From a virus (taxonomy: Duplodnaviria > Heunggongvirae > Uroviricota > Caudoviricetes), in the IMG/VR virus record IMGVR_UViG_2585427783_000006, positions 1 through 25,729 of that record: a stretch of 25,729 bases of DNA. One strand, given 5' to 3'. Shown here one piece after another: positions 1 to 17,577 of this stretch (its first letter is position 1; every line of letters begins with the position of its first letter). The position numbers and the translations under genes were made by a program. The notes beneath the pieces were generated by a model. The model was given only the letters and a program-made list of their open reading frames with translations. It made no database searches and was not told the DNA's origin.

Positions 1-267
1 TTACTCTGCAGGTGAAGTCGGCCACTCAATATCAGGTGCGGTTGATGTATCAACACGGTTCAGCAACACCCGATACTTCTTCCAGGCTTCCAGCAACGAG
101 TTTTCTTCCTCCGTTGCGATCTCCAGATCTACAGCATCCTGAAGTGGCGCAATATGCTCACTGAATTCCTGGATGTAGAACTGTGTGGTGACGGTCTTCC
201 AGCCATTCGGCTCCTGCTGTATCGAAGCATACCAGGCTATTTCAATATCGCTATGCTGCGGCAGCAT
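1..267 (-). CDS. Short tail fibre assembly (Tfa)-like protein or fragment, 88 aa
   Basis: The C-terminal ~50 aa ([36 protein letters not shown]...EWP) align with the C-terminus of the intact Tfa at 2522-3049; the N-terminal 35 aa are unrelated. Stop codon is at 1-3. Confidence 0.5.
20..92. repeat. 73-bp direct repeat copy A (tfa 3' end); partner at 1069-1141
   Basis: Direct comparison: 71 of 73 nt identical to 1069-1141, same orientation. Confidence 0.9.
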
Positions 268-323
268 TTAACCCCTTGTAATTCATCGCCATAATTGATT
301 TAATTCATAAACAAAACTATAAC

Positions 324-992
324 ATGGTGAAACTAATGAAAAAAAACACACATGATGGGGCTAAAATTTACACACCACTTACCCTAAAGCTTTATGACTG
401 GTGGGTTTTGGGAGTATCAAATCGTCTTGCATGGGGATGTCCTACAAAGGAACACCTTCTTCCACACTTTCTGGAACATTTAGGTAACAACCATCTGGAT
501 ATTGGTGTTGGAACTGGGTTTTACCTTACTCACGTACCTGAGAGTAGTCTGATATCTTTAATGGATTTGAACGAAGCTAGCCTGAACGCGGCATCTACAA
601 GGGCTGGGGAATCAAAAATTAAACATAAAATTAGCCATGATGTTTTTGAACCTTATCCCGCGGCGTTACATGGTCAATTTGATTCCATTTCCATGTTTTA
701 CCTTCTTCACTGCCTGCCTGGAAATATATCTACAAAAAGCTGTGTAATACGCAATGCTGCGCAGGCCTTAACTGACGATGGAACTCTATACGGAGCCACA
801 ATTCTTGGCGATGGAGTTGTGCACAATAGCTTCGGTCAAAAACTGATGCGCATTTACAATCAGAAAGGCATCTTTTCAAACACAAAAGATTCCGAAGAAG
901 GCTTAACACATATACTCTCAGAGCATTTCGAGAATGTTAAAACCAAGGTTCAAGGTACTGTAGTAATGTTTTCCGCTTCAGGGAAAAAATAG
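324..992 (+). CDS. Class I SAM-dependent methyltransferase (moron), 222 aa; substrate unknown
   Basis: Glycine-rich motif I (LDIGVGTGFY) typical of Rossmann-fold SAM methyltransferases. The gene is AT-rich relative to flanking tail genes and sits on the opposite strand between tfa remnants. Alternative start ATG at 337. Confidence 0.65.
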   Translation: MVKLMKKNTHDGAKIYTPLTLKLYDWWVLGVSNRLAWGCPTKEHLLPHFLEHLGNNHLDIGVGTGFYLTHVPESSLISLMDLNEASLNAASTRAGESKIKHKISHDVFEPYPAALHGQFDSISMFYLLHCLPGNISTKSCVIRNAAQALTDDGTLYGATILGDGVVHNSFGQKLMRIYNQKGIFSNTKDSEEGLTHILSEHFENVKTKVQGTVVMFSASGKK

Positions 993-1046: not shown

Positions 1047-1373
1047 TTACTCCCTGACAGGGTTCGTAGGCCACTCAATATCAGGTGCAGTTGATGTATC
1101 AACACGGTTCAGCAACACCCGATACTTTTTCCAGGCTTCCACCACCAGCACGACAAGATGCCGCATACAGTGACCCAGTCAGTCCAGTTTCCAGACAACT
1201 AGTGCGTCACCTTTTTGAAGGCGCTTTAAAGCACGTTTTAATCCAGGTCGGCCTGTCCTTGTTCCGCTTAATTTATCTTCAAATATTTGTTCACATCCTG
1301 CACAAACAAGAGCGTTTCGTTGCAGGTCTGTATTCTGGTCATTTGTTGATACCCTTACATAGCCAATCAGCAC
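1047..1373 (-). pseudogene. pin: Pin/Gin/Hin-family serine DNA invertase remnant: premature TGA after codon ~72, then in-frame fusion to a tfa 3' end
   Basis: The N-terminus (GTG start at 1373, LIGYVRVSTNDQNTDLQRNAL...VVWKLD) matches the invertase catalytic domain including the active-site Ser in YVRVS. TGA at 1179-1181 sits where Arg is expected. The frame continues [13 protein letters not shown] and then switches to [23 protein letters not shown] (Tfa C-terminus). The resolvase core and C-terminal HTH are absent. Confidence 0.8.
1069..1141. repeat. 73-bp direct repeat copy B (tfa 3' end fused to the pin remnant)
   Basis: 71 of 73 nt identical to 20-92. Confidence 0.9.
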
Positions 1374-1427
1374 GCTGAATCTCCCGTCCAAAAGCACAAA
1401 TCATGCCATGCAGGCCAGAAACGGCCA

Positions 1428-1477: not shown

Positions 1478-2518
1478 GTGCAAAAGAATGGCGATACCTT
1501 GTCCGGTGGGCTTACTTTTGCAAACGACTCAATCCTTGCCTGGATTAGAAATACTGACTGGGCGAAGATTGGATTTAAAAATGATGCCGACAGCGATACT
1601 GATTCATACATGTGGTTTGAAACAGGCGACAACGGCAATGAATATTTCAAATGGAGAAGCCGCCATGGCACCACAACAAAAGACCTGATGAATCTTAAAT
1701 GGGGTGCTTTGTATGTTCTTGTTAAAGCCCTTTTCGGCAGTGAAGTAAAAATATCGACAGTCAATGCACTGAGGATTTTTAATTCATCCTTTGGTGCTAT
1801 TTTTCGCCGTTCTGAAGAACACCTGCATATCATCCCTACACGAGAAAATGAGGGTGAAAATGGAGATATTGGGCCATTAAGGCCATTCAACATCAACTTA
1901 AGAACAGGAGTTGTGTCTGTTGGTAATGGTGCCAGGATTGATGGCGGGCTGGCACTTGGCACGAATAACGCGTTGGGTGGGAACTCAATTGTTCTTGGTG
2001 ATAATGATACCGGATTTAAACAGAATGGTGATGGTATTCTTGATGTTTACGCTAATAGTCAGCGAGTATTCCGCTTTCAGAATGGAGTGGCTATTGCTTT
2101 TAAAAACATTCAGGCAGGTGATAGTAAAAAATTCTCGCTATCCAGCTCCAACAACTCCACGAAGAACGTAGGGTTTAATTTATGGGGCACTTCATCAAGA
2201 CCAACTGTTGCAGAGCTTGGTGATGATTCAGGCTGGCATTTCTATAGTCAGCGAAATACAGATAACTCAGTAACATTTGCTGTTAACGGTCAGATACAGC
2301 CCAGCAACTGGGGGAATTTTGATTCCCGCTATGTGAAAGATGTTCGCCTGGGTACGCGTGTTGTTCAATTGATGGCGCGTGGTGGTCGTTATGAAAAAGC
2401 CGGACACGCAATTACCGGATTAAGAATCATTGGTGAAGTAGATGGCGATGATGAAGCCATCTTCAGGCCAATACAAAAATACATCAATGGCACATGGTAT
2501 AACGTCGTACAGGTGTAA
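1478..2518 (+). CDS. stf: Side tail fibre variable C-terminal cassette (Sv'), promoterless; coding continues upstream to the crossover site
   Basis: QKNGDTLSGGLTFANDSILAWIRNTDWAKIGFKNDAD...GTWYNVVQV matches the C-terminal receptor-binding part of lambda Stf. It lies immediately after the left crossover site and inside the invertible segment. Confidence 0.8.
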   Translation: MQKNGDTLSGGLTFANDSILAWIRNTDWAKIGFKNDADSDTDSYMWFETGDNGNEYFKWRSRHGTTTKDLMNLKWGALYVLVKALFGSEVKISTVNALRIFNSSFGAIFRRSEEHLHIIPTRENEGENGDIGPLRPFNINLRTGVVSVGNGARIDGGLALGTNNALGGNSIVLGDNDTGFKQNGDGILDVYANSQRVFRFQNGVAIAFKNIQAGDSKKFSLSSSNNSTKNVGFNLWGTSSRPTVAELGDDSGWHFYSQRNTDNSVTFAVNGQIQPSNWGNFDSRYVKDVRLGTRVVQLMARGGRYEKAGHAITGLRIIGEVDGDDEAIFRPIQKYINGTWYNVVQV

Positions 2519-2521
2519 TTT

Positions 2522-3049
2522 ATGCAGCATTTAAAAAATATTAAGTCTGGAAATCCAAAAACAAAAGAACAATATCAGCTAACAAAGAATTTTGATGTTA
2601 TCTGGTTATATACAGAAGACGGTAAAAACTGGTATGAGGAAGTGAAAAACTTTCAGCCAGACACAATAAAGATTGTTTACGATGCAAATAATATTATTGT
2701 CGCCATCACCAAAGATGCCTCCACGCTTAACCCTGAAGGTTATAGCGTCGTTGAGGTTCCAGATATTACAGCCAACCGCCGCGCTGATGATTCCGGTAAG
2801 TGGATGTTTAGGGACGGAGCTGTGGTTAAACGGATTTATACGGCAGACGAGCAACAACAACAGGCCGAATCACAAAAGGCCGCATTGCTTTCCGAAGCTG
2901 AATCAGTCATCCAACCGCTGGAACGCGCTGTCAGGCTGAATATGGCAACAGACGAGGAACGCACACGACTGGAAGCATGGGAACGCTACAGTGTTCTGGT
3001 CAGCCGTGTGGATACGGCAAATCCTGAATGGCCACAAAAACCAGAGTAA
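2522..3049 (+). CDS. tfa: Tail fibre assembly protein Tfa, 175 aa
   Basis: Directly follows the Sv' cassette; Tfa-like C-terminus ([32 protein letters not shown]). Confidence 0.8.
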
Positions 3050-5037
3050 AAATTAAGGCCCGATGTCCAGACCTGACTATCGCCACCAATATTCAGCCAT
3101 GAGCTATATGCGCGGCAGGCACCAATATTTTTGGTGAAGGTATCTTTTCCTGGAATATCTGCGCCGTTCTGGTTTTTCTGTAATGCGCCAGAAGCCTGAC
3201 TTACCGTTTCCTGTAAACCGAGGTATTCGATAACAGCGGCAACGGTCGATTTCGCAAGAATATCCCGCCCGACTTTTGTCAGGGTTGCCAGGCTGGCGAC
3301 ATCATTCCCCGTAAAATACGGAAACCTGTCTGCCGCAGTAGCAAGCCCGGCCAGCGCCGTCAGGGTGGCATCTTTCGGTTGCTTACCCGCAAGCGCGTTA
3401 GTCATGGTGGTCGCAAAATTCGGGTCGTTTCCCAGCGCCGCCGCCAGCTCGTTCAGCGTATTCAGTGCGTCAGGCGACGAGTCTACAAGTGCGGCAATCG
3501 CGGCCATCACATAAGCCGTGCTTGCGATCTGAGTATTATTAGTCCCTTTTGGCGCAGTTGGCGTTGTTGGCGTTCCGGTCAGCGCAGGACTGTTTAAAGG
3601 CGCTTTCTTGTTCGTTTCATCCATTACCGCCTTAACCGCTTTTGGTGTCGCAGCCAGCGTTTCAGACGGGCTGTTAGTGGCGCTACTGAGCTGAACTATC
3701 CCTTTTCGTGCCGTCGTTGCATCCTGAGCGGTATATTTTGCGTTAGCAAGGTCATATGCTGCCTTTACTGCCTTTGGTGTTGCCGCCAGTGACTCGGAAG
3801 TGCTGTTGGTCGCACTGCTGAGCTGAACCACACCTTTTTTCGTCGTGCTCGCATCTTCCAGAGATACGGCATCAGCAATATCCTCTGCCCGTTTTGCTGC
3901 TGTTTCGGCACGCGTTGCCGCGGATTCAGCAGCAACTTTGCTCTGAGATGCAGCCGTCGCACTGCCTGCCGCCTCTGATGCTTTCGTTGTTGCTGTCGTG
4001 GCACTACCTTTCGCTGCTGACGCTTGTCTGGTCGCCTCATCTTTTGAAGCAGACGCAGATGATGCCGATGACGCCGCTGAACCAGCGGACGATGCGGCTG
4101 CCGCCTTAGAGGAAGCAGCATTGTCTGCTGAAGTCTTTGCATTTGTTTCAGAGGTTTTTGCTGCAGAAGCAGACCTCGCTGCTGCAGTGGCTTGCTTAGT
4201 GGCTTCGCCAGCCTTCGTTGTGGCTGTTGAAGCGGATGATGCGGCGCTTTCTGCCGATTTTCCGGCGGCGGTGGCACTGGCTGAGGCCTGCCCGGCACTT
4301 GTTGACGCGGCACTGGCCGACGATGCAGCCGCTGTTTTTGAACCTGCCGCAGCTGAGGCACTCTGTGCTGCTGCCGTTTCAGAAGACTTAGCGTTTGTCT
4401 CAGACGTCTTTGCCGCCTTCGCGGAATTTCCTGCCGCCGTTGCCGAGGAAGCTGCACTACTGGCACTTGATGATGCATTCGTTTCTGATGATTTCGCTGC
4501 CTCTTTTGAGGCCGCCGCCCCCCGTGCCGAGGTGGCAGCTTCTGACGCCTTCGTGGTCGCTGTGGATGCAGAAGTGGCTGCCGATTTTTGTGATGCTGCG
4601 GCATTCGTTTCTGACGTTTTCGCGGCACTGGCGCTGGTAGCTGCCGCGCTTTTTGATGACTCTGCAGCAGCAGCACTTTTCGCTGCTTCACTGGCCTTTG
4701 TCGATGCCGTTCCTGCGCTGGAAGACGCTGACTGAGCCGACGACGCGGCCTGTCCGGCTGACGTGCTGGCTGCGCGTGCTGAGCCTGCAGCATCAGTCGC
4801 ATGGGTTGCCGCCTCACGGGCTGATGTGCTGGCATCACTGGCTGACTTCTTCGCGGCTGCCGTGTTCTGTGCCACTGCGGACGCGTTACGCGCCACCTCT
4901 TCCACCATCAGTTCAAAACGGCGCAGTGCCTCCGGACGGGCATCATCCTCCGTCATGGCACCGAGAAAATCATTCAGCGTACCGGGTCGGGAATCTTCAT
5001 ACACGGTGATGGTCCCGGCATGTGACGGCGGGAATCC
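2986..5037 (-). pseudogene. stf: Side tail fibre Stf constant region, N-terminally truncated by the J-stf deletion and currently joined to a non-homologous C-terminal stub
   Basis: GFPPSHAGTITVYEDS...long Ala/Ser-rich repeats...AVIEYLGLQETV matches lambda Stf from about residue 60 to the crossover point. After the crossover the frame reads antisense through the tfa 3' end. Confidence 0.8.
3208..3233. other. Inversion crossover site (gix/pix-like), right, inside the stf reading frame
   Basis: TTCCTGTAAACCGAGGTATTCGATAA is the inverted partner of 1428-1453 (16 bp identical in one half-site). It encodes ...IEYLGLQE... at the constant/variable junction of the tail fibre. Confidence 0.75.
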
Positions 5038-7165
5038 GGAACGATACCGACGCCGGATCGCCCTGCTGTCCCCATGCATTTACTGCCCGGACTGTCAGCC
5101 TGTAGTTCCCCAGAGCCAGTTGTGTGAAGCGGTAAGTGGTTTCCGTCGTCCGGGCCGTGCTGACCAGCCGCTCACTGCCGTCATCCGCTGCCACGGTCAG
5201 GCGAAGCATAAAGCTCACCCCCTTCACCACCTTCGGCGTGTCCCAGCGGGCCAGCACCTGGTATTCCCCGCTGTCTGCGGTGACTTCGGCGGTCAGATGC
5301 TGCACTGCTGGCGGCGTGACACCATTCACCGTGCCGCTCTGGTTACCGTCAAAGTGCGCCCCGTTATCCACGATGGCTTCTTTCTCCGGTACATGCTGCA
5401 CTGCAGTGATGGCATACGTACCGTCGTCGTTCTCACGGATACTCACACAGCGGAACAGGCGCTGGCGCAGCGTCGGCAGCTTCAGCCCCCACACGCTGTA
5501 CTCGGCAACGCCGTCAGGAACCCGGCTCACTTTCACCTTCACGCCGTCGGTGATGGACTGGACCTCCACGCTGACCGGATTGCCACTTCCGTCAACCAGG
5601 CTTATCAGCGTGGTGCCGGAGGATGGCAGCGTGATTTCACGGTCGAGCGTCAGCGTCCGGGTCTGGCTGTTCACCGCCAGCACGCGCCCGCCGGTGCTGA
5701 TACCGGCATAGTCATCATCGCAGATTTCAATGACATCGCCCGGTACATGGCGAAGCCCTTCGGCACCCACGCTGAAGTCCACGGTCTGCGTCTCCAGCAG
5801 TTCTGTTTTAATCAGCCACAGCCCGGCGCGGTGTGCCTGCCCCCGGCTGGTACAGCCAAAAGCATCCATCTTCGTGACGTTACGGCCGTAACGGGCAATG
5901 GCCTGCGTGTCCTCCACAAGCTCTGTCGCCGTCTCCCAGCCGTTGTTCGGGTCAATCCAGTTCACCTCAACGGCATTATGGCGGTCCTTCAGGGCGCTGA
6001 AGCTGTAGCGGAACGGCGCGCCATCATCCGGCATCACCACATTACTGCGGTTATAGGTCCACACCTTATCTGATGGTCGGTCCTGCACGAACGTCAGCGT
6101 CTGCCCGTTCCATACCGGCATACAGCGCATCGCCGAGCAGAAATCACTGAGCACATCCCACGCCTTGCGCTGTGTGGTCAGGTACGCATTACAGGTGATG
6201 CGCGGCTCCGTGCCGCCAAAGCCGTCCGGCACTGACTGGTCGCAGTACTGGCCGATAACATACAACGCCCATTTATCCACATCCGCCGCACCAAGACGTT
6301 TCCCCATGCCGTAGCGCGGATGGGTCAGCATATCCCACAGACACCAGGCCATGTTGTTGCTGTATGCCGGTTTAAACGTTCCGTCCCAGATACCGCTGTA
6401 TTGCCGCGTCTGCGGGTTATAATTCGACGGCACCTGCAGAATACGCCCGCGCAGATGATAATTACGGCTCACCTGCTGGCTGCCGAACTGCTCCGAGTCC
6501 ACCTGCACGCCGACCAGTACCGTGTTCGGGTAGCACTGTTTCACATCGATAATTTCGGTGTATGACGACCAGAGCGTTTTGTTCTGCAGCTGGTCTGTGG
6601 TGCTGTCCGGCGTCATCCTGCGCATCCGGATACTGAACGGGCGCGGCGGCAGGTTATCCACCACCACCGAGGCCAGATACTGTGAAGTGGTTTTACCCTT
6701 AATGGTGATGTCTTTTTCCGTCACCCAGCCACCGTTACGCTGGATCTGAACCAGCAGGCGGACTTCCGACGGATTCCTGTCCCCCTTTGAGGTGGTTTCC
6801 ACCAGTGCCTGCACGCCGAAGGTAAAACGCAGTCGGTCAATGTTTGCCGACGTGATGGTCCGGGTGATCGGCGTGTCGTATTTCACTTCCGTACCCAGCA
6901 CCGTCTCGGAGCCGGAGGATTCAAATCCCTCCGGCGGTGTCTGCTCCTGCTCACCGGCCCGGAACACCACCGTGACGCCGGATATATTGGTATTCCCCTC
7001 ACTGTCCAGCACCGGCGTACTGTTCAGCAGCACGCTTTTTAATCCATCCACCGGACCTTCAACCGGCCCTTCGCTGATAGCATCGATCACACTCAGCAGC
7101 TGCGTGGACTTCAGGTTGTCCTTCGCTTCGCGCGGGGTATGCCCCTTACTGCTGCCTTTACCCAT
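4997..7165 (-). pseudogene. J: Host specificity protein J, truncated after about residue 716; C-terminal receptor-binding region deleted
   Basis: MGKGSSKGHTPREAKDNLKSTQLLSVIDAISEGP... is near-identical to lambda J through ...ASVSFRI, then 11 unrelated codons and a stop. Full J is remembered as about 1130 aa. Confidence 0.85.
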
Positions 7166-7225
7166 TCGTCATGCTCCATAAACGATAAAACCGCCCGGAG
7201 GCGGTTTCACATAAAACGTTTTTCA

Positions 7226-7897
7226 TCAGCGACCAATCACCACAACCTGACCACCGTCCCCTTCGTCTGCCGTGCTGATCTCCTGAGAAACCACACGTGA
7301 TCCCACGCGCATTTCACCGTACAGAACGGGCAGAACATTGCCCTAGGCAACCATGTTATCCAGTGAGGAGAAATAGGTGTTTTGTTTGCCGTTATCCGTT
7401 GTCTGTGTACGGGGAGTTCTGGCTTTCGGTGCCAGCATCTGGGCCACACCACCGAGCACCATACTGGCACCGAGAGAAAACAGGATGCCGGTCATACCAC
7501 CGGCCCCAATGGCTGCCCCCCATGCTGCAAGGGTGGCTCCGGCAGTAAAGAATGATCCGGCAATGGCGGCTGCTCCCAGGACAATCTGGAATACGCCACC
7601 TGACTTGGCCCCGGCGACTCTGGGAACAATATGAATCACAGCGCCATCAGGCAGAGTCTCATGTAACTGCGCCGTCAACCCGGACGTGCTGACGTCCCGC
7701 CCGGCAATCCGTACCTGATACCAGCCATCGCTCAGTTTCTGACGAAACGCCGGGAGCTGTGTGGCCAGCGCCCGGATGGCTTCAGCCCCCGTTTTCACAC
7801 GAAGGTCGATGCGGCGGCCAAATCGTTGTAAATCCCCGTAAAGGCAGATGCGTGCCATGCCCGGTGACGCCAGAGGGAGTGTGTGCGTCGCTGCCAT
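7226..7897 (-). pseudogene. I: Tail assembly protein I with an in-frame amber (TAG) codon at 7343-7345
   Basis: MAATHTLPLASPGMARICLYGDL...SSLDNMVA then TAG where lambda has Gln. The same frame continues GNVLPVLYGEMRVGSRVVSQEISTADEGDGGQVVVIGR to a stop at 7226-7228. Confidence 0.8.
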
Positions 7898-8538
7898 TTT
7901 TCGGTATACCTCTCTCGTTTGCTCAGTTGTTCAGGAATATGGTGCAGCAGCTCGCCGTCACCACAGTAAATGGCGGCATGATTCGGCACCGATGAACCAA
8001 AACAGCACAGCAGCACATCGCCCGGCTGCGCCGCTGACAACGGCACCTGATACAGCCCTGTGGCCTCCAGATTATCCAGATAGAGATTCTGACCGTTACG
8101 CCACCAGTCATCCTCACGATGAAAATCCGGCATCTCAATCCCCGCCAGATGGTAAGCATCCCGGAACAGCGTGTAACAGTCCGTCACCCCGTGCTCAAAG
8201 CGCCGCCCGGTGAGATGCGGCACACAGCGGAATTTATGAATCGCCCCCCGGCAGACCAGCCACCACGGCAAATCACTCTGCACCTGCAACCGCCGGTCAG
8301 CCTCACTCAGCCAGGGCAGACCACCGGGGTGACTGTGGACCAGCGCCACAATCTCACCCTGCATTTCTGCCTGCAGCCAGTCCTCCGGAGCCATCCGGAA
8401 ATAATCCTCCGGCTCACCGGAAATATTCACGCCGGGAAAATATCTTTCCCCCTCCGGCGTTCTCACCACGAAGCCGCACGACTCCGCTGGCGCACATCGC
8501 CGGGCGTGCGCCAGGATCGCTGATTCTGTCTCTGTCAT
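7795..8538 (-). CDS. K: Tail assembly protein K (JAMM/MPN plus NlpC/P60-like)
   Basis: MTETESAILAHARRCAPAESCGFVV...HSHPGG... Start chosen at the ATG at 8538; the longer ORF listed in the track is an upstream extension overlapping L. Confidence 0.8.
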   Translation of the reverse strand: MTETESAILAHARRCAPAESCGFVVRTPEGERYFPGVNISGEPEDYFRMAPEDWLQAEMQGEIVALVHSHPGGLPWLSEADRRLQVQSDLPWWLVCRGAIHKFRCVPHLTGRRFEHGVTDCYTLFRDAYHLAGIEMPDFHREDDWWRNGQNLYLDNLEATGLYQVPLSAAQPGDVLLCCFGSSVPNHAAIYCGDGELLHHIPEQLSKRERYTEKWQRRTHSLWRHRAWHASAFTGIYNDLAAASTFV

Positions 8539-8542
8539 GGGA

Positions 8543-9241
8543 TTACTGCGAAAGTTTGTTAATGGAAAGGAAGCCGCCAAAGTTGCCGACGTTATTGCGA
8601 AACTTACAGCCACTCAGGCATTTGCTGCATTTATCCTTCGTGATATCGGACGTCGGCTGGTCATATTCATCCGCGACAGCCGGACCGCTATAACCGCACT
8701 CGTCACCGCGATAGGTCCAGGTGCAGGTGTTGGCCAGCATGATACGTCCCGGAAAAACAGCGCCATCCGTTTCCGTCGGCGTGGACAGTACAAAAGAGGC
8801 ACTGACTGCGCTCAGTTCGCTGCACTGCTCGATGCGCCAGCGGCTGATCACCTCCTGCTCCGGATCGGCGTCTCTGTTTCCGTTGACGAAGTTCACCGCA
8901 TCCAGAAAACGGGCGTAAACCTTACGCCGGACCACCGTTCCGCCGACCAGACTCTGCAGATCTTCCGCCATCCCGGTGACCATACCGTACAGGTTAGAAA
9001 CCGTCAGCGTGGGGCGCGTACTGGTGCCTTTGCCATTCAGTTCAAAACCACTCCCCTGAATGGGATACGGCTGATACTGTCGCCCCTGCCAGGTGACCGG
9101 CTCACCTTTTTCGTTCTGCTCATTACAGAAAAAATAACGTTCTCCACCGACCTCTGTCAGGTCGATTTCCCAGAGCACCACGCTGGCCGACTGCTCCGCA
9201 CGGGTGCATTCATTCAGTGTTTCCTGCCGGATATCCTGCAT
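8543..9241 (-). CDS. L: Tail tip protein L, 232 aa
   Basis: MQDIRQETLNECTRAEQSASVVLWEIDLTEVGGERYFFCNEQNEKGEPVTWQGRQYQPYPIQ... lambda L-like, in lambda synteny. Confidence 0.85.
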   Translation of the reverse strand: MQDIRQETLNECTRAEQSASVVLWEIDLTEVGGERYFFCNEQNEKGEPVTWQGRQYQPYPIQGSGFELNGKGTSTRPTLTVSNLYGMVTGMAEDLQSLVGGTVVRRKVYARFLDAVNFVNGNRDADPEQEVISRWRIEQCSELSAVSASFVLSTPTETDGAVFPGRIMLANTCTWTYRGDECGYSGPAVADEYDQPTSDITKDKCSKCLSGCKFRNNVGNFGGFLSINKLSQ

Positions 9242-9570
9242 CAGTTCACCACCTGTTCAAACTCTGCGCTGAACTCAACACGCAGCATACTGACCCGCGA
9301 CGACCATTTTGCGCAGGTCACCTTTATCTGCCGCCACTCATAAGGCGGCGTCCACAGAAAGGCTTTCCAGCCCCCGTGCTCAGCCAGAAACGACTCCAGC
9401 GCCGTGGCCTCCTCACGGGAGACAGACAGCGTCACGCTGTACGTTTTCAGGTCAGCGTTCAGCCCGGCAGGCGCTCGCTGAGAATAGCCATCACCAAAGC
9501 GCACCTTTCTTACGGAAGGGGCCGAAGCCACATCCATACCGGGTTTCGCTTTCCAGCGGAAGGTCTTCAT
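9241..9570 (-). CDS. M: Tail protein M, 109 aa
   Basis: MKTFRWKAKPGMDVASAPSVRKVRFGDGYSQRAPAGLNADLKTYSVTL... lambda M-like, in lambda synteny. Confidence 0.85.
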   Translation of the reverse strand: MKTFRWKAKPGMDVASAPSVRKVRFGDGYSQRAPAGLNADLKTYSVTLSVSREEATALESFLAEHGGWKAFLWTPPYEWRQIKVTCAKWSSRVSMLRVEFSAEFEQVVN

Positions 9571-12041
9571 CGTCCACCTCCGGAGAACAGACCACCATCG
9601 CGCATCTGTGCCTGAATTTCATCACGGGCCCCCTTACGGGCCATGTCATACACTGCCTTCATCATCTGTGGACCTGGCAGACCATTCGTACCGTCGTTCT
9701 GAATCACCACGTGATTGTTCTGATTAAAATTAATGCCTTCCGCCCGCCGCATCTGCGCCGGACTTCCGGCACCGCCCACATAACCACCTTCCGCATAGCC
9801 GCGCATCAGCCGGTAGAGATTTCCCACGCCAATCCGGCTGGTTGCCTCCTTCGTGAAGACAAATTCACCACGGTGAACAATCCCCGCTGGCTCATATTTG
9901 CCGCCAGTTCCCGTAAATCCCCCGGTCGCAAAATGGAATTTTGCCGCAGCAGCCTGAATGGCTGTACCGCCTGACACTGATGCGCCACCACCGGCAGCAC
10001 CGCCAATGGCGCTGCCGATACTCCCGACAATTCCCACCATTGCCTGCTTAAGCAGAATTTCTGTCATCATGGACAGCACGGAACGGGTGAAGCTGCGCCA
10101 GTTCTGCTCACTGCCGGTCAGCATCGCCGCCATATTCTGTGCAATACCATCAAAGGTCTGCGTGGCAGCACTTTTAACCTGCGACATACTGTCCGTGGCG
10201 CTCTCTTTCCACTCACTCCAGCCTGACCTGAGGCCTGCCATCCAGCTCCCGCGAAGCTGGTCTTCAGCTGCCCAGGTCTTTTTCTGCTCTGACATGACGT
10301 TATTCAGCGCCAGAGGATTATCGCCATACTGTTCCTTCAGGCGCTGTTCCGTGGCTTCCCTCGCTGCCTGCCGGTCAGTCAGCCCCCGGTTTTTCGCATC
10401 AATGGCGGCCCGTTTTGCCCGTTGCTGCTGTGCGAATTTATCCGCCTGCTGTGCCAGCGCGTTCAGGTGTTCCTGATAGGTGACCTTGTCGCCAAGTGCA
10501 GCCAGCTGGCGTTTGTACTCCAGCGTCTCATCTTTATGCGCCAGCAGGGATTTCTCCTGTGCAGACAGCTGGCGACGTTGCGCCGCCTCCTCCAGTACCG
10601 CGAACTGACTCTCCGCCTTCCACAAATCCCGGCGCTGCTGGCTGATTTTTTCATTCGCTCCACTATGCTGCTCAAGCATTTTTAGTTCAGCTTGTAACGC
10701 AAGAAGAGCTGCATGTGCTCGATCTTCCTGACGCTCTCCCGCAGCGGACTGCTTCGGCTTTTTCAGCGTCGCTTCATAGTCCTTTTTCGCCGCCGCCATC
10801 AGCGTGTTGTAATCTGCCTGCAGGATTTTCCCGTCTTTCAGTGCCTTGTTCAGTTCTTCCTGACGAGCGGTATATTTCTCCAGCGGCGTCTGCAGGCGTT
10901 CGTAAGCCTTCTGCGCCTCTTCGGTATATTTCAGCCGTGATGCCTCAGACTCGGCCCAGTCCTTTGCTGCCATCTCTCTGGCCTTTTCAAGATCGGCCTG
11001 CAACGTGGCGGCTGAAAGCCCAAGTTGCGCATTCGCTCTGTCCTCCCATGCTCCCCGGAGATTGGCAAGAAATGCTGAGGTTTTACCGCGCCGGTGGCTC
11101 CGGCTCTGATACCACTGCCATTTTTTGTCCGCCTCATCAAAAGCCTTTTCTGCTTTCTCCAGCATTCCCTGGGCAGTGTCCGGGCGACCAATATCCAGCA
11201 CCGCATCCCACATGGATTTGAATGCCCGTGCTGTCCTGTCTGCCCAGGTCTCCAGCGTGCCCATGTTCTCTTTCAGGCGGAGGGTCTGGTCATCAAACCC
11301 TTTCGTTGCGGCCTCGTTCGCCGCCTGCAATGCCCCGGCTTCATCTCCGGAACGCTGCAACTGAGCAACATACGCAATCTGCTCCGCCGTCACGTTATGG
11401 AACTGACGTGCCATCGCTGTCAGTCCCGACGTCGGGTCTGTGGTCAGCTTCCCGAAGGCTTCAGCGACCTTGTCCACCTCCACGCCGGATGCAGAGGAGA
11501 AACGCGCCACACTCTGGCTGATCGCCTCAAACTGCTCACCACCACGCACACCGGCATTCACCAGCGCCGTCAGTGACTCGCTGGTCTGGTTAAACGTCAG
11601 CCCTGCCGCCTGCCCGGCTCTGGACAGGACCAGCATACGATCTGCCGTCAGTCCCGCCTGATTGCCGGAAAGGACCAGCGTTTTGTTGAAATCGGACAGG
11701 GTTGAGTTGCCCTGATACCAGGCATACGCCAGCGCACCGGTCGCCACCGCCAGCGAGGTGGCCCCCACCATCGGCAGGGTGATCGCACCGGCAAGCCCCC
11801 TGAACATGGGGATCATCCCGCCGAAGGAGTCCTTCACCTGACCACCCTGTTGCAGCAGGATCAGCCACGGACTTTGCCCGCCTGCAAGCTGCGTGGCCAC
11901 GTCAGTGAACTGTGCAGGCAGCATACGCATGGCGGCTTTATACTGTCCGACGGAAATGGCCATTGCGGCGGCACCGGGCACCGCCGTTCTGCTGATACGG
12001 CTGAGGTTTTCAACGGCCTGCTCAAGACCTTTTATGGCCAT
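9567..12041 (-). CDS. H: Tape measure protein H carrying the N-terminal ~29 codons of tail gene Z (in-frame Z'-'H deletion fusion), 824 aa
   Basis: The N-terminus MAIKGLEQAVENLSRISRTAVPGAAAMAI matches the remembered lambda Z start; from SVGQYKAAMRMLPAQFTDVATQLAGG onward it matches lambda H. The gene begins 12 nt after the FII stop, where Z should sit. Confidence 0.75.
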   Translation of the reverse strand: MAIKGLEQAVENLSRISRTAVPGAAAMAISVGQYKAAMRMLPAQFTDVATQLAGGQSPWLILLQQGGQVKDSFGGMIPMFRGLAGAITLPMVGATSLAVATGALAYAWYQGNSTLSDFNKTLVLSGNQAGLTADRMLVLSRAGQAAGLTFNQTSESLTALVNAGVRGGEQFEAISQSVARFSSASGVEVDKVAEAFGKLTTDPTSGLTAMARQFHNVTAEQIAYVAQLQRSGDEAGALQAANEAATKGFDDQTLRLKENMGTLETWADRTARAFKSMWDAVLDIGRPDTAQGMLEKAEKAFDEADKKWQWYQSRSHRRGKTSAFLANLRGAWEDRANAQLGLSAATLQADLEKAREMAAKDWAESEASRLKYTEEAQKAYERLQTPLEKYTARQEELNKALKDGKILQADYNTLMAAAKKDYEATLKKPKQSAAGERQEDRAHAALLALQAELKMLEQHSGANEKISQQRRDLWKAESQFAVLEEAAQRRQLSAQEKSLLAHKDETLEYKRQLAALGDKVTYQEHLNALAQQADKFAQQQRAKRAAIDAKNRGLTDRQAAREATEQRLKEQYGDNPLALNNVMSEQKKTWAAEDQLRGSWMAGLRSGWSEWKESATDSMSQVKSAATQTFDGIAQNMAAMLTGSEQNWRSFTRSVLSMMTEILLKQAMVGIVGSIGSAIGGAAGGGASVSGGTAIQAAAAKFHFATGGFTGTGGKYEPAGIVHRGEFVFTKEATSRIGVGNLYRLMRGYAEGGYVGGAGSPAQMRRAEGINFNQNNHVVIQNDGTNGLPGPQMMKAVYDMARKGARDEIQAQMRDGGLFSGGGR

Positions 12042-12052
12042 ACATCCCCCTT

Positions 12053-12406
12053 TCAGCGGCGACGGTTAACGGCAGGCGGTACGCCCCGCCCAAGCCAGAG
12101 ATGACAGCTTCCGCCATCATCCGGCGAAATCCGGTCTATCCAGAAGTTTTCCTCACCGATGGTCAGCGTGTCGCCGCGCCGCAGCTGCCGCACATCATCA
12201 GTCCGGACAAACAGGGACGGGCTGGAGCCTTCAACGCGCACGCCCTGTCCGGCATAGCTGATATTTTCAGGGTCATCAAAAACACCACGTATCACAGCAC
12301 CGGACTGCTCACCGGATGTCATGGTGGCTGACGTTCCCATGTACCCGCGTATCGTTTCATCGGCGCAGGCAATGGCAGCATCGAACAGGTTATCGAAATC
12401 AGCCAC
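12053..12406 (-). CDS. FII: Head-tail joining protein FII, 117 aa
   Basis: MADFDNLFDAAIACADETIRGYMGTSATMTSGEQSGAVIRGVFDDPENISYAGQGVRVEG... lambda FII-like. Confidence 0.8.
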   Translation of the reverse strand: MADFDNLFDAAIACADETIRGYMGTSATMTSGEQSGAVIRGVFDDPENISYAGQGVRVEGSSPSLFVRTDDVRQLRRGDTLTIGEENFWIDRISPDDGGSCHLWLGRGVPPAVNRRR

Positions 12407-12417
12407 AGCGCCTCCCG

Positions 12418-12813
12418 TTATTGCATTCTGGCCAGGCCACGTTCTGTCATTTCGGCTGCCACACCGGCAGAGACACGAAACGCCGTTCCCGGCAGCACAA
12501 ATGCCACAGGTTCATCCCGCGTGGCGTGAAGTGCATCGGTATGCAGCGTCACCAGTGCCACAACCGTGACCAGAGCAGCCGTATCAGTCACGGTATCCGT
12601 CTGTGCTGATACCACCTCATTTTCATGTCCGGTCAGCGAATTTTCCGGGCTGACAGACGTGTCCTGACCGGCTGCGTCATCCGTGTCATCAAGCTCCTCT
12701 TCCAGCTCTGCCACACGGAGCGCCAGTTCTTCTTTCGTCCCCGTCAGGCTGACATCACGGTTCAGTTGCTCACCCAGCGACCGGAGACGGGCAATCAGTT
12801 CATCTTTCGTCAT
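12418..12813 (-). CDS. FI: DNA packaging protein FI, 131 aa
   Basis: MTKDELIARLRSLGEQLNRDVSLTGTKEELALRVAELEEELDD... lambda FI-like. Start at the ATG at 12813, preceded by a GGAGGAG Shine-Dalgarno sequence. Confidence 0.8.
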   Translation of the reverse strand: MTKDELIARLRSLGEQLNRDVSLTGTKEELALRVAELEEELDDTDDAAGQDTSVSPENSLTGHENEVVSAQTDTVTDTAALVTVVALVTLHTDALHATRDEPVAFVLPGTAFRVSAGVAAEMTERGLARMQ

Positions 12814-12854
12814 GGACTCCTCCACAGAGAGACAATGGCCCCGAAGGGCCATGA

Positions 12855-13880
12855 TTACGCCAGTTGAACGGACACGAACTCATCAGGATCAGCCAGCAGC
12901 ATCAGCGGTGCTGACTGAATCATGGTGAACTCTCGCGCCGGATCGCCGGATGTCTTCCAGTTTTTCGGATAACGGGGAGACGCATTAATACCCTCACTCA
13001 ATGCATCCGCATCCTGAATACAGCCATAGGTGCGCAGACCGCGTGCATGAGTGTTCCCCAGCACCATCGTGTTGTCCGGCAGGAAGTTCTTTTTGACGCC
13101 GTTTTCCACGTACTGTCCGGAATACACGACGATGGCCACATCGCCATACATTCCCTTATAAGACACCGCTTTGCCCAGGTCTTTTACCGCTGTCTCCAGT
13201 TCGGAATGAGAGCCGCGACGGGTATCCAGCTTCTCCCTGACGGCTTTGAAGGAACGGAACAGCGCCCAGCCTTTCGGGTCAAACACGATGATATTCACCA
13301 CGCCGCTGGCGTTCAGCGCGTAGGCTTCGATATCGTCGGTCGGGTCATACGTGGACTTGTCACGCTTGCTCCACTCCGTGCCGCCGGACTGCGTGATGTT
13401 GTTCGCCGCACTGCGGCCCATATCCACCTCGACCGGATCGAAGGCTTCACCGGTCATGGTGTATTTGCCCTTGAGCACGGCAGAAACGGCCTGCATCTCT
13501 TCGACCTGAGCAATGGCCTGCTCTTCGTCACGCATGTTCTGCATGATGATGCGACGGCGGCGGTAAGCCGGGTCCGCCAGATTCTGTGGATCTTCATCCG
13601 GCAGGCGACGCAGGGTCATCTGCGGATTCACCTCATGCTTCGGCTTGACATATCCCGGCGTAAATTCGGAGGTGGAGCCGCCACGGGAGCGGATAACCTC
13701 ACCGGAAACAATCGGCGAAACGTACAGCGCCATATTTACCAATCCCGGAATTTGTGAGAGATAGACTTTCTCCGTGGTGAAGGGATAGCTTTCACGGAAA
13801 AAGAGACGCAGAAACAGCGGATCAAACTTAAATTTCTGCTCATTTGCCGCCAGCAGCTGGGCGGTTGTGTACATCGACAT
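12855..13880 (-). CDS. E: Major capsid protein E, 341 aa
   Basis: MSMYTTAQLLAANEQKFKFDPLFLRLFFRESYPFTTEKVYLSQIPGLVNMALYVSPIVSGEVIRSRGGSTSEFTPGYVKPKHEV... near-identical to remembered lambda E. Start at the ATG at 13880. Confidence 0.9.
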   Translation of the reverse strand: MSMYTTAQLLAANEQKFKFDPLFLRLFFRESYPFTTEKVYLSQIPGLVNMALYVSPIVSGEVIRSRGGSTSEFTPGYVKPKHEVNPQMTLRRLPDEDPQNLADPAYRRRRIIMQNMRDEEQAIAQVEEMQAVSAVLKGKYTMTGEAFDPVEVDMGRSAANNITQSGGTEWSKRDKSTYDPTDDIEAYALNASGVVNIIVFDPKGWALFRSFKAVREKLDTRRGSHSELETAVKDLGKAVSYKGMYGDVAIVVYSGQYVENGVKKNFLPDNTMVLGNTHARGLRTYGCIQDADALSEGINASPRYPKNWKTSGDPAREFTMIQSAPLMLLADPDEFVSVQLA

Positions 13881-14248
13881 AAAAAAATCCCGTAAAAAAA
13901 GCCGCACACCAGCGATGCAATATCCTGCTGGTGGATGAACGACAGAATCTTCACCGACACCACCGATACCAGCACCGCACACAGCGCATCTGCCGATGTA
14001 CCGTCATACCCTGTTTTTGATGCAATCCAGGCTGACAGCACACGCGCTCCCAGCACGCCGACAATAAACGACACCAGAAAATGCGCCACCACGCGCCAGA
14101 CTGAAAGTGACTGCGGCATCGTTGCCACAAATAACGCCCCGGCGAACGCGCCAAACACAATCCCGAAATCCATCCCGGTAAACAGCCCGAATACCGTCGC
14201 GCCACCCAGCGCCGCAGCCGTGCCGGAACCGGATAAGGGTTCAGACAT
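13736..14248 (-). CDS. Predicted 3-TM membrane protein (holin-like?); its 3' end reads into the E start region and is probably disrupted
   Basis: MSEPLSGSGTAAALGGATVFGLFTGMDFGIVFGAFAGALFVA... has three hydrophobic helices in the first ~125 aa. The last ~45 codons are low-complexity (CRCTQPPSCWRQ...) and overlap the E start by about 145 nt. Confidence 0.45.
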   Translation of the reverse strand: MSEPLSGSGTAAALGGATVFGLFTGMDFGIVFGAFAGALFVATMPQSLSVWRVVAHFLVSFIVGVLGARVLSAWIASKTGYDGTSADALCAVLVSVVSVKILSFIHQQDIASLVCGFFYGIFLCRCTQPPSCWRQMSRNLSLIRCFCVSFSVKAIPSPRRKSISHKFRDW

Positions 14249-14340
14249 ACTTCCTCCTGAAAATAAAAAAAGGGCCACCAGCGACCCGTAAAAAAACACC
14301 CCGTCAAAGGCACCCGCAGATGCCTTTTGTGTGATGTTAT

Positions 14341-14493
14341 TCAGATTTTCGCAGTAAAGGCCGGAGCACGATCAGCGCCATCGCCACCAGCACACCATCT
14401 GCCAGCACTGACATCAGTCGTCCGGTGAAATCCACCATCACTACCAGAAACAACAGGATGACAGCCAGCACAAGGCGCGCACTTTTCACAGGT
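14341..14493 (-). CDS. Possible small hydrophobic protein (~50 aa, GTG start overlapping the upstream stop)
   Basis: My translation gives VKSARLVLAVILLFLVVMVDFTGRLMSVLADGVLVAMALIVLRPLLRKSE; the GTG overlaps the TGA of the 74-aa ORF (cTGTGa). The ORF track lists a different frame of this region. Confidence 0.3.
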   Translation of the reverse strand, partial: TCEKCAPCAGCHPVVSGSDGGFHRTTDVSAGRWCAGGDGADRAPAFTAKI

Positions 14494-14710
14494 ACTGCTC
14501 CAGCGGCAACTGCAGCGCCTGCGCAATTTTCTTCAGTTGCGCTTCTTCTTCCTGACCGATACCGTCCTGGTCAGCGATATCCAGACACAGACACAGCACA
14601 TTCACAGTATCATCAGTATCTGCAACATCAGTCAGCTGACGAAGGGCTTCAGCATTAGCAGAACGCGGTGGCGCTTCATAACGGGCGCGGATATGAAAAA
14701 GGCCCGCCAA
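14486..14710 (-). CDS. Hypothetical acidic protein, 74 aa
   Basis: ORF starts 23 nt downstream of a tRNA 3' end; no recognised family. Confidence 0.3.
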   Translation of the reverse strand: MAGLFHIRARYEAPPRSANAEALRQLTDVADTDDTVNVLCLCLDIADQDGIGQEEEAQLKKIAQALQLPLEQYL

Positions 14711-14732
14711 AGCGAGCCTGGAAAAATAAGCG

Positions 14733-14809
14733 TGGCGCGTTGTACTGGATTCGAACCAGTGACCGATTGCTTAGAAGGCAATTGCTCTGTCCGGCTGAGC
14801 TAACAACGC
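14733..14809 (-). tRNA. argN: tRNA-Arg (anticodon UCU; argN/argU-like)
   Basis: Folded by hand: 7-bp acceptor stem GCGTTGT/ACAACGC, D-arm GCTC/GAGC, anticodon loop CTTCTAA, T-loop GGTTCGAATCC, 3' GCCA. Confidence 0.85.
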
Positions 14810-14822
14810 ATAATGCAGATAA

Positions 14823-14899
14823 TGGATTGCCATCGGGGACCCGAGCCCCACACAGCCAGTTTCGAAAGCTGGCACTCTCTGTCGATGAGCTAATGGCGG
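14823..14899 (-). tRNA. Degenerate tRNA-like element, possibly argO-like tRNA-Arg (UCG)
   Basis: Sits in the 97-bp gap between two good tRNAs. It has an anticodon-type stem-loop (CCAGC-TTTCGAA-ACTGG) and a GC-rich T-like stem, but two mismatches at the acceptor end and a non-canonical T-loop (CTCGGGT). Confidence 0.3.
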
Positions 14900-14906
14900 T
14901 ATGTGA

Positions 14907-14982
14907 TGGTGGCCCTTGCTGGATTTGAACCAGCGACCTGGCGATTATGAGTCGCTCGCTCTCACCACTGAGCTAAAGGGCC
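14907..14982 (-). tRNA. ileZ: tRNA with CAU anticodon, ileX/ileZ-like (tRNA-Ile2 reading AUA; could alternatively be tRNA-Met)
   Basis: Sequence closely resembles remembered E. coli ileX. Acceptor stem GGCCCTT/AAGGGCC, anticodon loop CTCATAA, T-loop GGTTCAAATCC, CCA encoded. Confidence 0.8.
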
Positions 14983-15031
14983 GGGAGCAGAATAATAATG
15001 GTGCGTAATTAATTCTGCAATCTCATCCGTT

Positions 15032-16081
15032 TCAAACGATTAAATCCTGAACTTCCCTGACTGTCTGTTCAAAACGTCCTGTCTCCAGCTCAACACCAAT
15101 CGCACAACGCCCCAGTGCCATCGCCGCTTTTACCGTTGAACCTGAACCCATAAAAAAATCTGCAACCAGGTCTCCCGGACGACTGCTCGCGTTGATTATC
15201 TGCTGCAGCATTTCTGCCGGTTTTTCGCACGGATGTTTTCCTGGATAGTACTGCACCGGTTTATGCGTCCAGACATCGGTGTACGGAACCTGCGCCGTCA
15301 CACCGAAATACCGCCGCAAATTTTTATATTCACTCAGCAGTTCCGTGTACTGCCGGTTCAGCTCACTGTATGTGCTGACCAGCTGGTGGTGTGGCTTTTC
15401 CAGTTCCCCGCGCTGATGTTTTTCTGCCGCAACACGCGCAAACAACGCCTGCAATTTGTTGTAATCACCCTCGTTCGGTAACTGCCACTGACTGGTACCA
15501 AACCAGTGCGAAGCCATGTTTTTCTTTCCGGTGGCTTCCGCTATCTGTTTTGACGTTATTCCCAGTGATTTACGCGCATCACGAAAGTAAGAAATCAGCG
15601 GGGCCATGACGTGCTGTTTTAGCTCGCGCCCCTGTGCCACATAGCCATCATCTTTCGGGCGATACGGTCCCTGATAATGTTCTGCAAACAGAATGCGCTC
15701 TGTTGCCGGAAAATACGCCCGCAGACTTTCCTTATTGCACCCGTTCCAGCGTCCGGACGGCTTCGCCCAGATAATGTGGTTCAGCACATTAAAGCGCTCA
15801 CGCATCATGATTTCGGTGTCAGATGCCAGGCGATGACCACAGAACAGGTAAAGACTTCCGGTAGGCTTCAGTACCCGCCAGAACTGCGCCAGACACTGGT
15901 CCAGCCATTTCAGGTAATCATCGTCGCCCTCCCACTGGTTATCCCAGCCCTCGGGCTTCACTTTAAAGTATGGCGGGTCTGTGACTATCAGATCGACAGA
16001 ATTTTCCGGTAAGGTCTGGATAAACTCCAGGCAATCAGCGTTGATTAACTCACAACTGGATATTTTTACAGTATTAATCAT
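15032..16081 (-). CDS. Orphan DNA methyltransferase (N6-adenine or N4-cytosine, beta-class), 349 aa
   Basis: DPPY motif IV near the N-terminus (LIVTDPPYF) and motif I (FFMGSGST) near the C-terminus. No adjacent restriction endonuclease gene. Confidence 0.8.
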   Translation of the reverse strand: MINTVKISSCELINADCLEFIQTLPENSVDLIVTDPPYFKVKPEGWDNQWEGDDDYLKWLDQCLAQFWRVLKPTGSLYLFCGHRLASDTEIMMRERFNVLNHIIWAKPSGRWNGCNKESLRAYFPATERILFAEHYQGPYRPKDDGYVAQGRELKQHVMAPLISYFRDARKSLGITSKQIAEATGKKNMASHWFGTSQWQLPNEGDYNKLQALFARVAAEKHQRGELEKPHHQLVSTYSELNRQYTELLSEYKNLRRYFGVTAQVPYTDVWTHKPVQYYPGKHPCEKPAEMLQQIINASSRPGDLVADFFMGSGSTVKAAMALGRCAIGVELETGRFEQTVREVQDLIV

Positions 16082-16231
16082 AGATCAATAAGCACTTCTC
16101 TGATAGGCTCATACCGCTTTTGCGCAAAGCAGATGGGCCTGAGGTTTGCTTGTGACCCCAACGCATGAGCAGATGGCTGGCAGGTGCCGCTAACACCCCC
16201 CAGCCGCCCATTACCACAAATTAAAAAGCCT

Positions 16232-16411
16232 TCACTGCGGAAGGCGTCTGTAACAACCGAACTGATAATCTGCCAGACCCGCCATAACAAGCTGAGTCAG
16301 TATTAACTGGCAGCGTTCGCGTGAAAGGTAAGTATTCTGCGCAATTTCCCCGACGGTCGCCGGTTCGGTGATGCTTAATTCATTAAACACCACTCTGGCG
16401 GTTTCGGTCAT
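16232..16411 (-). CDS. Hypothetical small protein, first gene after tR'; start uncertain (ORF extends to 16552)
   Basis: A CAGGA Shine-Dalgarno sequence precedes the ATG at 16411 (MTETARVVFNELSITEPATVGEIAQNTYLSRERCQLILTQL...). Confidence 0.35.
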   Translation of the reverse strand: MTETARVVFNELSITEPATVGEIAQNTYLSRERCQLILTQLVMAGLADYQFGCYRRLPQ

Positions 16412-16550
16412 ATCCTGCTGTTTTAGCATGCCTTTTTCCCTTTCCCAGTTAACGTGACATACCAATACCTCTTGTCGAAAAAGCCAGCAAGCTGAAAGAC
16501 CGGCATTCGCAACCACCAGCGCATTTAACGTCCTGTACCGCTTTTCGGGC

Positions 16551-16578
16551 ACAAAAAAACCCGCATAAAGCGGGTTCT
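16551..16578 (-). terminator. Rho-independent terminator, candidate tR' (target of Q antitermination)
   Basis: On the minus strand: AACCCGC-TTTAT-GCGGGTT hairpin followed by TTTTTTT, about 85-110 nt downstream of the Q stop. Confidence 0.7.
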
Positions 16579-16660
16579 TTCAGGTGTCCATGTCTGCTAT
16601 TCGCCTCGCGGTATAGCTTTGCGAAGCGTAGCTGGATTGAAACAGTTTATGCGTAAAAAA

Positions 16661-17215: not shown

Positions 17216-17577
17216 TCACTCTCAATTTTGTAAATCTTCACGCCCAGCCGCCCCCCAGGAACGCGCTGACCGCGCACAATATTGATTTCATCAAACTGCT
17301 CGTCGTCTATGAGAAGTCCGGCATGCGTCAGCGCATCCAGTGGTGCTTTCAGGATATTGTCCAGGTCACGACGACGTTTATCCGGTGGCTCTGCAATAAT
17401 CTTTATCGCCAGCCTTCCGGACAGGTTTAATTTCAGCCGCTGCTGGCGAACAATAAGCGCCACATCACGGCGATAACGCTCACCGGCTTTTGATACAAAA
17501 TATGTGCTGCCACGACGTCGCCAGTAAGTGTTCACCGTTGGCGGGTAAGGCAAAACAAATTCTATGCGTTCAGTCAT
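17212..17577 (-). CDS. rusA: Holliday junction resolvase RusA, 121 aa
   Basis: Size and motifs (PPDKRRRDLDNILKAPLDALTHAGLLIDDEQ) match the RusA family. Confidence 0.8.
   Translation of the reverse strand: MTERIEFVLPYPPTVNTYWRRRGSTYFVSKAGERYRRDVALIVRQQRLKLNLSGRLAIKIIAEPPDKRRRDLDNILKAPLDALTHAGLLIDDEQFDEINIVRGQRVPGGRLGVKIYKIESE

Follow-up and report, generated by a model that had tools for sequence, protein, structure and literature searches.

The gene at positions 324-992 (+) of the window (the whole stretch of DNA analysed, 25,729 nucleotides) is an intact copy, or orthologue, of Escherichia coli ybcY, which is already annotated as ybcY, as PHROG 2132 and in RefSeq, and its product is a class I (Rossmann-fold) SAM-dependent methyltransferase. 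It is carried in an AT-rich unit of ~1.1 kb that has repeats at its borders and that unrelated prophages also contain, at 97% identity. Such a unit is of an already known kind, namely a moron of classical architecture, and the feature itself is ordinary. On balance, we consider it likely that ybcY is a stand-alone moron for a small-molecule or lipid methyltransferase, probably with its own H-NS-sensitive sigma-70 promoter, whose substrate is present in every host; within this reading we hold the identity of the gene and the moron architecture with high confidence and the substrate class with moderate confidence. The enzyme is conserved and under purifying selection, and roughly three quarters of complete E. 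coli genomes as well as active lambdoid phages have the gene, yet it has received little study, possibly in part because ybcY is a pseudogene in the reference strain K-12.

ORF calling on the window gives a 222-aa plus-strand frame from the first ATG (324-992), in which the motif I sequence LDIGVGTGFY is encoded at 495-524. The protein scores above the gathering score of four Pfam class I methyltransferase models (score/gathering score: Methyltransf_12, 37.6/30; Methyltransf_23, 28.8/27; Methyltransf_25, 27.7/27; Methyltransf_11, 24.6/21.2), which together with the motif confirms the enzyme class proposed in the initial annotation of this DNA. An alignment of 31 sequences, drawn from several genera, has 59 invariant columns, including Y12, Y20-D21-W22-W23, N29, W33, C35, H53-D55-G57-G59-T60-G61 (G57, G59 and G61 being the glycines of the glycine-rich motif I, GxGxG), D77, H101-D102, D116-S117, H125-C126 and a KGIFSN block. 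D77 closes a predicted strand (72-77), and we infer that it is the acidic residue, located where strand 2 ends, that contacts the ribose of SAM. The AF2 model of the protein (pLDDT 91.2) contains seven strands and two N-terminal lid helices, and a search with this model returned more than 1400 structural matches to PDB methyltransferases at E <=0.001. As for the identity of the gene, PHROG 2132 ('unknown function') is matched with an E-value of 4e-156 over profile positions 1-218 of 218, the RefSeq record for the gene (WP_122996854.1, 'class I SAM-dependent methyltransferase') is annotated from ATG 324 (222 aa), and pairwise alignment of the window with K-12 ybcY (b0562) finds the DNA ~98.5% identical from the spacer through the gene to the hairpin. 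The initial annotation was sound but had overlooked this identity with ybcY and PHROG 2132, as well as the start-codon problem and the K-12 H-NS site described below.

The features of the ybcY unit and of the DNA next to it are as follows:

1-267, minus strand: tfaX-like ORF of 88 aa, divergent from the methyltransferase gene (PHROG 2341, E 2e-59).
17-95, no strand assigned: left copy of the 79-nt repeat, a module boundary (repeat family D1; homology limits).
268-335, plus strand: divergent spacer of 68 nt with 27.9% GC and two candidate sigma-70 promoters (sequence, promoter scan, GC).
336-992, plus strand: ybcY coding sequence from its probable true start, 218 aa plus stop (ORF, Pfam, PHROG 2132, homologue alignment).
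339-346, plus strand: A8 run directly after ATG 336 (columns 70-80 of the pairwise DNA alignment).
1000-1032, no strand assigned: stable, terminator-like hairpin of 14 pairs between the convergent ends of ybcY and the tail-fibre-assembly fragment (folding).
1047-1151, minus strand: 3' fragment of a tail-fibre-assembly gene, holding the right repeat at 1066-1144 (RefSeq pseudogene, 7047-7151 there and 1047-1151 in the window; repeat D1).
1179-1397, minus strand: truncated Pin/Gin-type DNA invertase of 72 aa (PHROG 8275 and 125, DNA invertase, at 20-84 of 254 profile positions; named 'Recombinase family protein' by RefSeq).

From left to right, the module comprises left repeat, tfaX-like ORF with an IS009 match, 68-nt spacer, ybcY, hairpin and right repeat. 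The two direct repeats (17-95 and 1066-1144) are 95% identical and flank ybcY, each copy being the 3' end of a tail-fibre-assembly gene on the minus strand. Homology to DLP12 of K-12 (97%) spans 21-1144 and homology to the active phage 2G7b (97.5%) spans 43-1141, and the shared unit therefore stops at the 79-nt repeats. The 88-aa ORF at the left end has tfaX as its K-12 counterpart and ends in ~57 aa that correspond to a tail-fibre-assembly C-terminus (PHROGs 105, 188 and 136 on residues 29-87). It overlaps a full-length match to the Rfam family IS009 (RF02111) at 41-244 (-), with a score of 129 bits (gathering score, 117); this stretch could function as RNA or encode a chimeric peptide resembling tail-fibre-assembly proteins, or do neither.

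In lambdoid phages, a moron in the sense of Hendrix and colleagues is an autonomous cargo unit. Its hallmarks are seen here both in the deviant base composition (40.8% GC and 34.7% GC3 in the ybcY coding sequence, compared with 55.8% GC in the structural genes at 3000-19000, in agreement with the earlier description of the gene as AT-rich) and in the patchy occurrence of the unit as a discrete insertion with sharp limits.

The window itself is an E. coli lambdoid prophage and, judging from near-identical genomes, its position 1 lies ~230 bp beyond potB. The truncated invertase is a context marker of a decayed invertible tail-fibre segment; to its right, spare tail-fibre and assembly cassettes occupy 1478-3049, and beyond these follow tail, tape-measure and head-fragment genes on the minus strand. 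The gene had been placed in a tail-fibre locus, and it does lie among tail-fibre-assembly fragments, the truncated Pin-type invertase and the spare cassettes. It had also been assigned to the lysogen-expressed strand, which holds in the sense that ybcY shares the strand of the cI-like repressor gene (24646-25284, +) and runs antiparallel to the tail and head genes. In phage 2G7b, ybcY comes after J-lom-stf-tfa and before an alpha/beta hydrolase gene, ompT and int, a position that is the cargo region adjoining the attachment site. Signs of prophage decay are found at 1179-1397 (-), 2986-5079 (-) and 12855-13982 (-), and a major-head-protein fragment lies unusually near the tail genes. Near 3064-3100, ~1.35 kb of strain E8 is absent from the window, probably covering a minus-strand tail-fibre-assembly gene and the C-terminal part of a side tail fibre, and none of the window ORFs that were scanned was recognised as a terminase, portal or lysis gene. 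Several other elements of the prophage were noted. A second AT-rich island (19679-21088, +; GC 0.34-0.37) with unknown-function ORFs of 304 aa (PHROG 7651) and 159 aa (PHROG 8552) has a Q-like antiterminator gene on either side (16661-17215 and 21094-21630, both -) and is a candidate for another moron or defence locus. An Rfam match to the sok antitoxin RNA (RF01794, 108.7 bits) at 19225-19399 (-) points to a toxin-antitoxin locus of the hok/sok type. A typical phage DNA methyltransferase gene, distinct from ybcY, is located at 15032-16081 (-; PHROG 6025 and 67, E ~1e-105), and downstream of it, on the same strand, are two tRNA genes (RF00005, 70 and 72 bits) at 14736-14809 and 14910-14982.

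The 222-aa frame of the initial annotation is present at 324-992, but the true start is probably ATG 336, which gives a protein of 218 aa. This start is the more likely because PHROG 2132 covers residues 5-222 of the 222-aa ORF, most homologues are 218 aa long and start at the second methionine, a Shine-Dalgarno-like GGTGA (326-330) is positioned 5 nt before ATG 336, and the K-12 ybcY annotation ends at the position equivalent to ATG 336. The same site is damaged in K-12, where 2 bp (GA) are deleted at the ATG-A8 start (window 336-346). The deletion destroys ATG 336 and also shifts the frame from ATG 324, hence the pseudogene status of b0562, whereas the window copy is intact. The A8 tract at 339-346 could be a mutational hot spot.

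Two candidate sigma-70 promoters can be read in the spacer. The first consists of TTGATT (295-300) and TATAAC (318-323) with a gap of 17 nt. Its -10 hexamer abuts ATG 324, so that a transcript would start near 330, which excludes ATG 324 as its start codon and leaves a leader of ~6 nt for ATG 336. The second, TTAACC (268-273) and CATAAT (290-295) with a gap of 16 nt, would give a leader of ~34 nt. A consensus promoter scan returned one site, compared with 2.8 expected from shuffled sequence, and this site is TTAACC-16-CATAAT (268-295); the TTGATT-TATAAC pair is not listed because the last base of TATAAC, position 6 of the -10 element, is not T. In a genomic-SELEX study with the RpoD holoenzyme (Shimada et al. 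2014, PMC3946193), the K-12 region ybcY<>tfaX was classed as a type-A spacer and bound the holoenzyme in vitro, TTGATT-17-TATAAC was assigned computationally to ybcY, and the spacer was flagged as carrying an H-NS site. The K-12 and window spacers differ at three positions in the alignment, none of them within the hexamers. Of the promoter-like sequence in the initial annotation, the hexamers are exact and the same as those listed in PMC3946193, but the scan does not rise above chance, and support for a promoter therefore comes from the published in vitro binding of the K-12 spacer and not from the sequence. Taken together, a promoter inside the 268-335 spacer is plausible. Because of the H-NS site in the K-12 spacer, expression in the lysogen is not assured, and silencing by H-NS is likely.

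At the other end of the gene, the hairpin stretch folds with a minimum free energy of -23.9 kcal/mol (z -5.6) on the plus strand and -28.5 kcal/mol (z -4.3) on the minus strand, and it is kept in K-12, with a single C-to-T change that retains a G-U pair. There is no adjacent U tract on the plus strand, and the terminator scan reported no intrinsic terminator; on the minus strand, a U6 run follows ~10 nt downstream, and the hairpin may thus end a late transcript too.

The DNA corresponding to 268-1065 is present in 3934 of 5426 complete E. coli genomes (~73%), K-12 derivatives among them, mostly at 95-99% identity and in up to five copies per genome, which amounts to 5671 genomic copies overall. 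Among 50,697 phage records, 14-15 carry ybcY, all with a single E. coli allele of at least 98.6% protein identity. The presence of one allele in isolated phages makes it likely that a bacterial gene was captured once and then spread within the E. coli lambdoids. An exhaustive profile search gave 411 clusters (representatives) at E <1e-30; of the 150 matches listed, the majority cover nearly the full profile and have lengths of ~215-240 aa, and the sampled clusters, from Cedecea, Francisella, Francisellaceae and Spartinivicinus, bear only the names 'class I SAM-dependent methyltransferase' or the automatic 'UbiE'. Values of dN/dS are 0.19 relative to a Citrobacter copy (90% amino acid identity), 0.12 relative to the chromosomal gene of Enterobacter hormaechei, with dS near saturation, and 0.09 relative to phage 2G7b, with few changes. 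The range of 0.09-0.19 indicates a functional protein, and these comparisons of coding sequences indicate that ybcY is under purifying selection. They also bear on the idea that ybcY is a functionless hitch-hiker, retained within a recombination-prone module of tail-fibre-assembly repeats. The K-12 pseudogene, the occurrence of truncated variants (e.g. a cluster of 161 aa with 445 members), the flagged H-NS binding and the decayed state of the host prophage would all fit this idea, but the dN/dS values, the full length of the dominant E. coli cluster (6589 members) and the full-length conservation in the 411 clusters, which include chromosomal copies in Salmonella, Enterobacter and Francisella, make it very improbable.

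The initial annotation held that the target of the enzyme could not be read from the sequence, and profile, structure and context searches indeed assigned none. In NCBIfam, all hits fell below the cut-off (CpaM, RquA, Legionella-type PmtA, BioC, UbiE/MenG, UbiG and NodS; 15-36 bits compared with cut-offs of 103-390), and this sub-threshold pattern is common to the window protein and nine of ten distant relatives, the tenth having no hit. Sequence and profile searches against the PDB align the SAM-binding core alone, with JHAMT best (6e-6), followed by UbiG. In Foldseek, the top hit is the bacterial phosphatidylethanolamine (PE) N-methyltransferase PmtA (8ys9; E 1.5e-12, TM 0.61-0.67), followed by JHAMT, PfPMT, SgvM, CysG(N-16) and Coq5. 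The structure-based check that had been proposed thus places the ybcY product among small-molecule and lipid methyltransferases (PmtA, JHAMT, UbiG/UbiE, BelI), in no specific family, and the parallel check for housekeeping homology found no homologous housekeeping enzyme of known function. A small-molecule or lipid substrate is the most likely.

Macromolecules were also weighed as targets. Methylation of an rRNA or tRNA nucleotide, or of a protein, could alter translation or give resistance to an antibiotic or toxin. The 218 aa of YbcY correspond, however, to approximately a Rossmann core with an N-terminal lid, no RNA-binding or other extra domain is present, and the hits to RNA and protein methyltransferases are weaker than those to small-molecule enzymes and far under their cut-offs, so that we regard a macromolecular target as unlikely. 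The substrate of CmoA itself is a small molecule (SAM to Cx-SAM).

Defence functions had been suggested for the gene from its position. Prophage cargo positions are where defence genes often lie, and the best PADLOC match of the ybcY product is a weak one to mad2 (E 0.0031, 14.4 bits), but nothing among the PADLOC-DB defence models was significant and no nuclease or other partner gene was found in any context examined; this suggestion of the initial annotation found no support. With regard to DNA methylation, a regular-expression search of the protein found neither (D/N/S)PP(Y/F/W) nor PCQ motifs, there is no target-recognition domain and no room for one in 218 aa, no DNA methyltransferase is found among the top 50-60 structural neighbours, and the prophage has a separate, typical DNA methyltransferase gene (15032-16081). 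The DNA methyltransferase reading was rejected on the basis of motifs and fold neighbours, and a role for YbcY as a DNA methyltransferase or as a component of phage defence or anti-restriction is, as a whole, highly improbable.

Gene context was compared in eight taxa, and in none of them was a conserved partner gene found, the ybcY-family gene being monocistronic. In Salmonella, STM1638 lies between a GT-C glycosyltransferase gene and rydC/cybB. The homologue of Enterobacter ludwigii is on a genomic island, and that of E. hormaechei is chromosomal and is followed by an alpha/beta hydrolase gene. In Erwinia the homologue is divergent from a carboxylesterase gene, in Yersinia it is near a GDSL-lipase autotransporter gene, and in Aeromonas it lies among IS elements. 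Further homologues, in Salmonella and Citrobacter, are found at prophage ends, and the Francisella homologue comes after a pair of small ORFs, close to lipoprotein genes and a CFA-synthase-like cluster. Neighbours of lipase, esterase or envelope type are met repeatedly across taxa, with different genes each time. The Francisella philomiragia locus (5584-7337 in the Francisella sequence) is the sole operon-like context and could be used for substrate finding: a 133-aa ORF ends 15 nt before the homologue, an LpoB-like lipoprotein gene comes next, and divergently upstream are a two-component system and an amine-oxidase/DUF1365/CFA-synthase-like cluster. YmfD of e14 was considered as a possible homologue and rejected (BLASTP E = 15). 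Our literature searches found no functional study of ybcY and nothing relevant on b0562, and STM1638 appears solely as a landmark adjoining rydC. A study of Hha saw no phenotype for a K-12 ybcY mutant.

A narrower view of the substrate starts from the fold. YbcY could be a membrane-associated lipid methyltransferase, for example one with PmtA-like N-methylation of phosphatidylethanolamine or another envelope lipid, which would remodel the lysogen membrane beside the Lom, OmpT and Bor cargo. PmtA is the top structural neighbour, and the curated PmtA family NF045882 gives 15.6 bits against a cut-off of 390; one study of methylated phospholipids in E. coli gives LplT/Aas, rather than a methyltransferase, as the endogenous route. 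We rate this possibility as low. We give an equally small chance to the tentative proposal that YbcY is a lysogenic-conversion enzyme methylating a membrane lipid or another hydrophobic substrate of envelope or xenobiotic origin, e.g. by N-methylation of PE. If such a lipid or hydrophobic substrate were the true one, the majority of wild E. coli would be able to produce a modified lipid or metabolite that would have been missed in K-12 owing to the pseudogene, and the promoter region may be silenced by H-NS.

The broader reading that we prefer, a stand-alone methyltransferase moron, can be outlined as follows. The gene for an enzyme of ~24 kDa is carried past the tail-fibre genes in the cargo region of a lambdoid prophage that is decayed and adjoins potB, and it would be transcribed autonomously from a sigma-70 promoter in the spacer, with H-NS probably dampening its expression. 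The 79-nt repeats would allow homologous recombination to shuttle the module between lambdoid phages. The enzyme would methylate a small molecule or lipid-like substrate that is already available in any host, as suggested by the fact that no partner gene travels with ybcY, and its role would be in host fitness or lysogenic conversion and not in DNA modification or phage defence. Identification of the substrate would add a new lysogenic-conversion activity and reveal the function of the wider family in Salmonella (STM1638), Enterobacter and Francisella.

Among known systems, the closest is ybcY of the cryptic prophage DLP12 in K-12, with which the window module shares the tail-fibre-assembly flanks (tfaD / tfaX) and the promoter hexamers. 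The K-12 gene differs in being a pseudogene that adjoins appY-ompT, whereas the window module is in another prophage, by potB and the pin remnant. STM1638 of Salmonella Typhimurium and the members from Enterobacter, Erwinia, Yersinia and Francisella form a full-length family with 56-67% identity. The chromosomal members share the N-terminal motif YDWWV...SN..AW as well as the motifs HCLPG and KGIFSN and are annotated only as putative SAM-dependent methyltransferases; unlike ybcY, chromosomal and island-borne members are not phage-borne and have no tail-fibre-assembly repeats. PmtA of Rubellimicrobium thermophilum (8ys9) has the class I fold and a similar size (207-217 aa compared with 218 aa for YbcY), and both enzymes have an N-terminal lid helix with conserved aromatics and a conserved His after strand 4. 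Y12, Y20 and H125 of YbcY are candidate counterparts of Tyr10, His117 and Ser120 in Rt-PmtA, which provide the catalytic Tyr of the N-terminal helix and the His/Ser phosphate-binding loop. For JHAMT, UbiG, UbiE/Coq5 and the BelI/CysG carboxyl O-methyltransferases, the match is limited to the SAM-binding core (profile 41-163), and a quinone or isoprenoid pathway context is absent around ybcY. As a unit, the module resembles the cargo genes lom, bor, ompT and mcrA of e14 in its location beyond tail-fibre and invertase genes near the attachment site, its deviant composition, a candidate promoter region of its own and its patchy presence among related phages. The products of the classical cargo genes, envelope proteins or a restriction enzyme, have known roles, however, whereas ybcY encodes a cytoplasmic enzyme.
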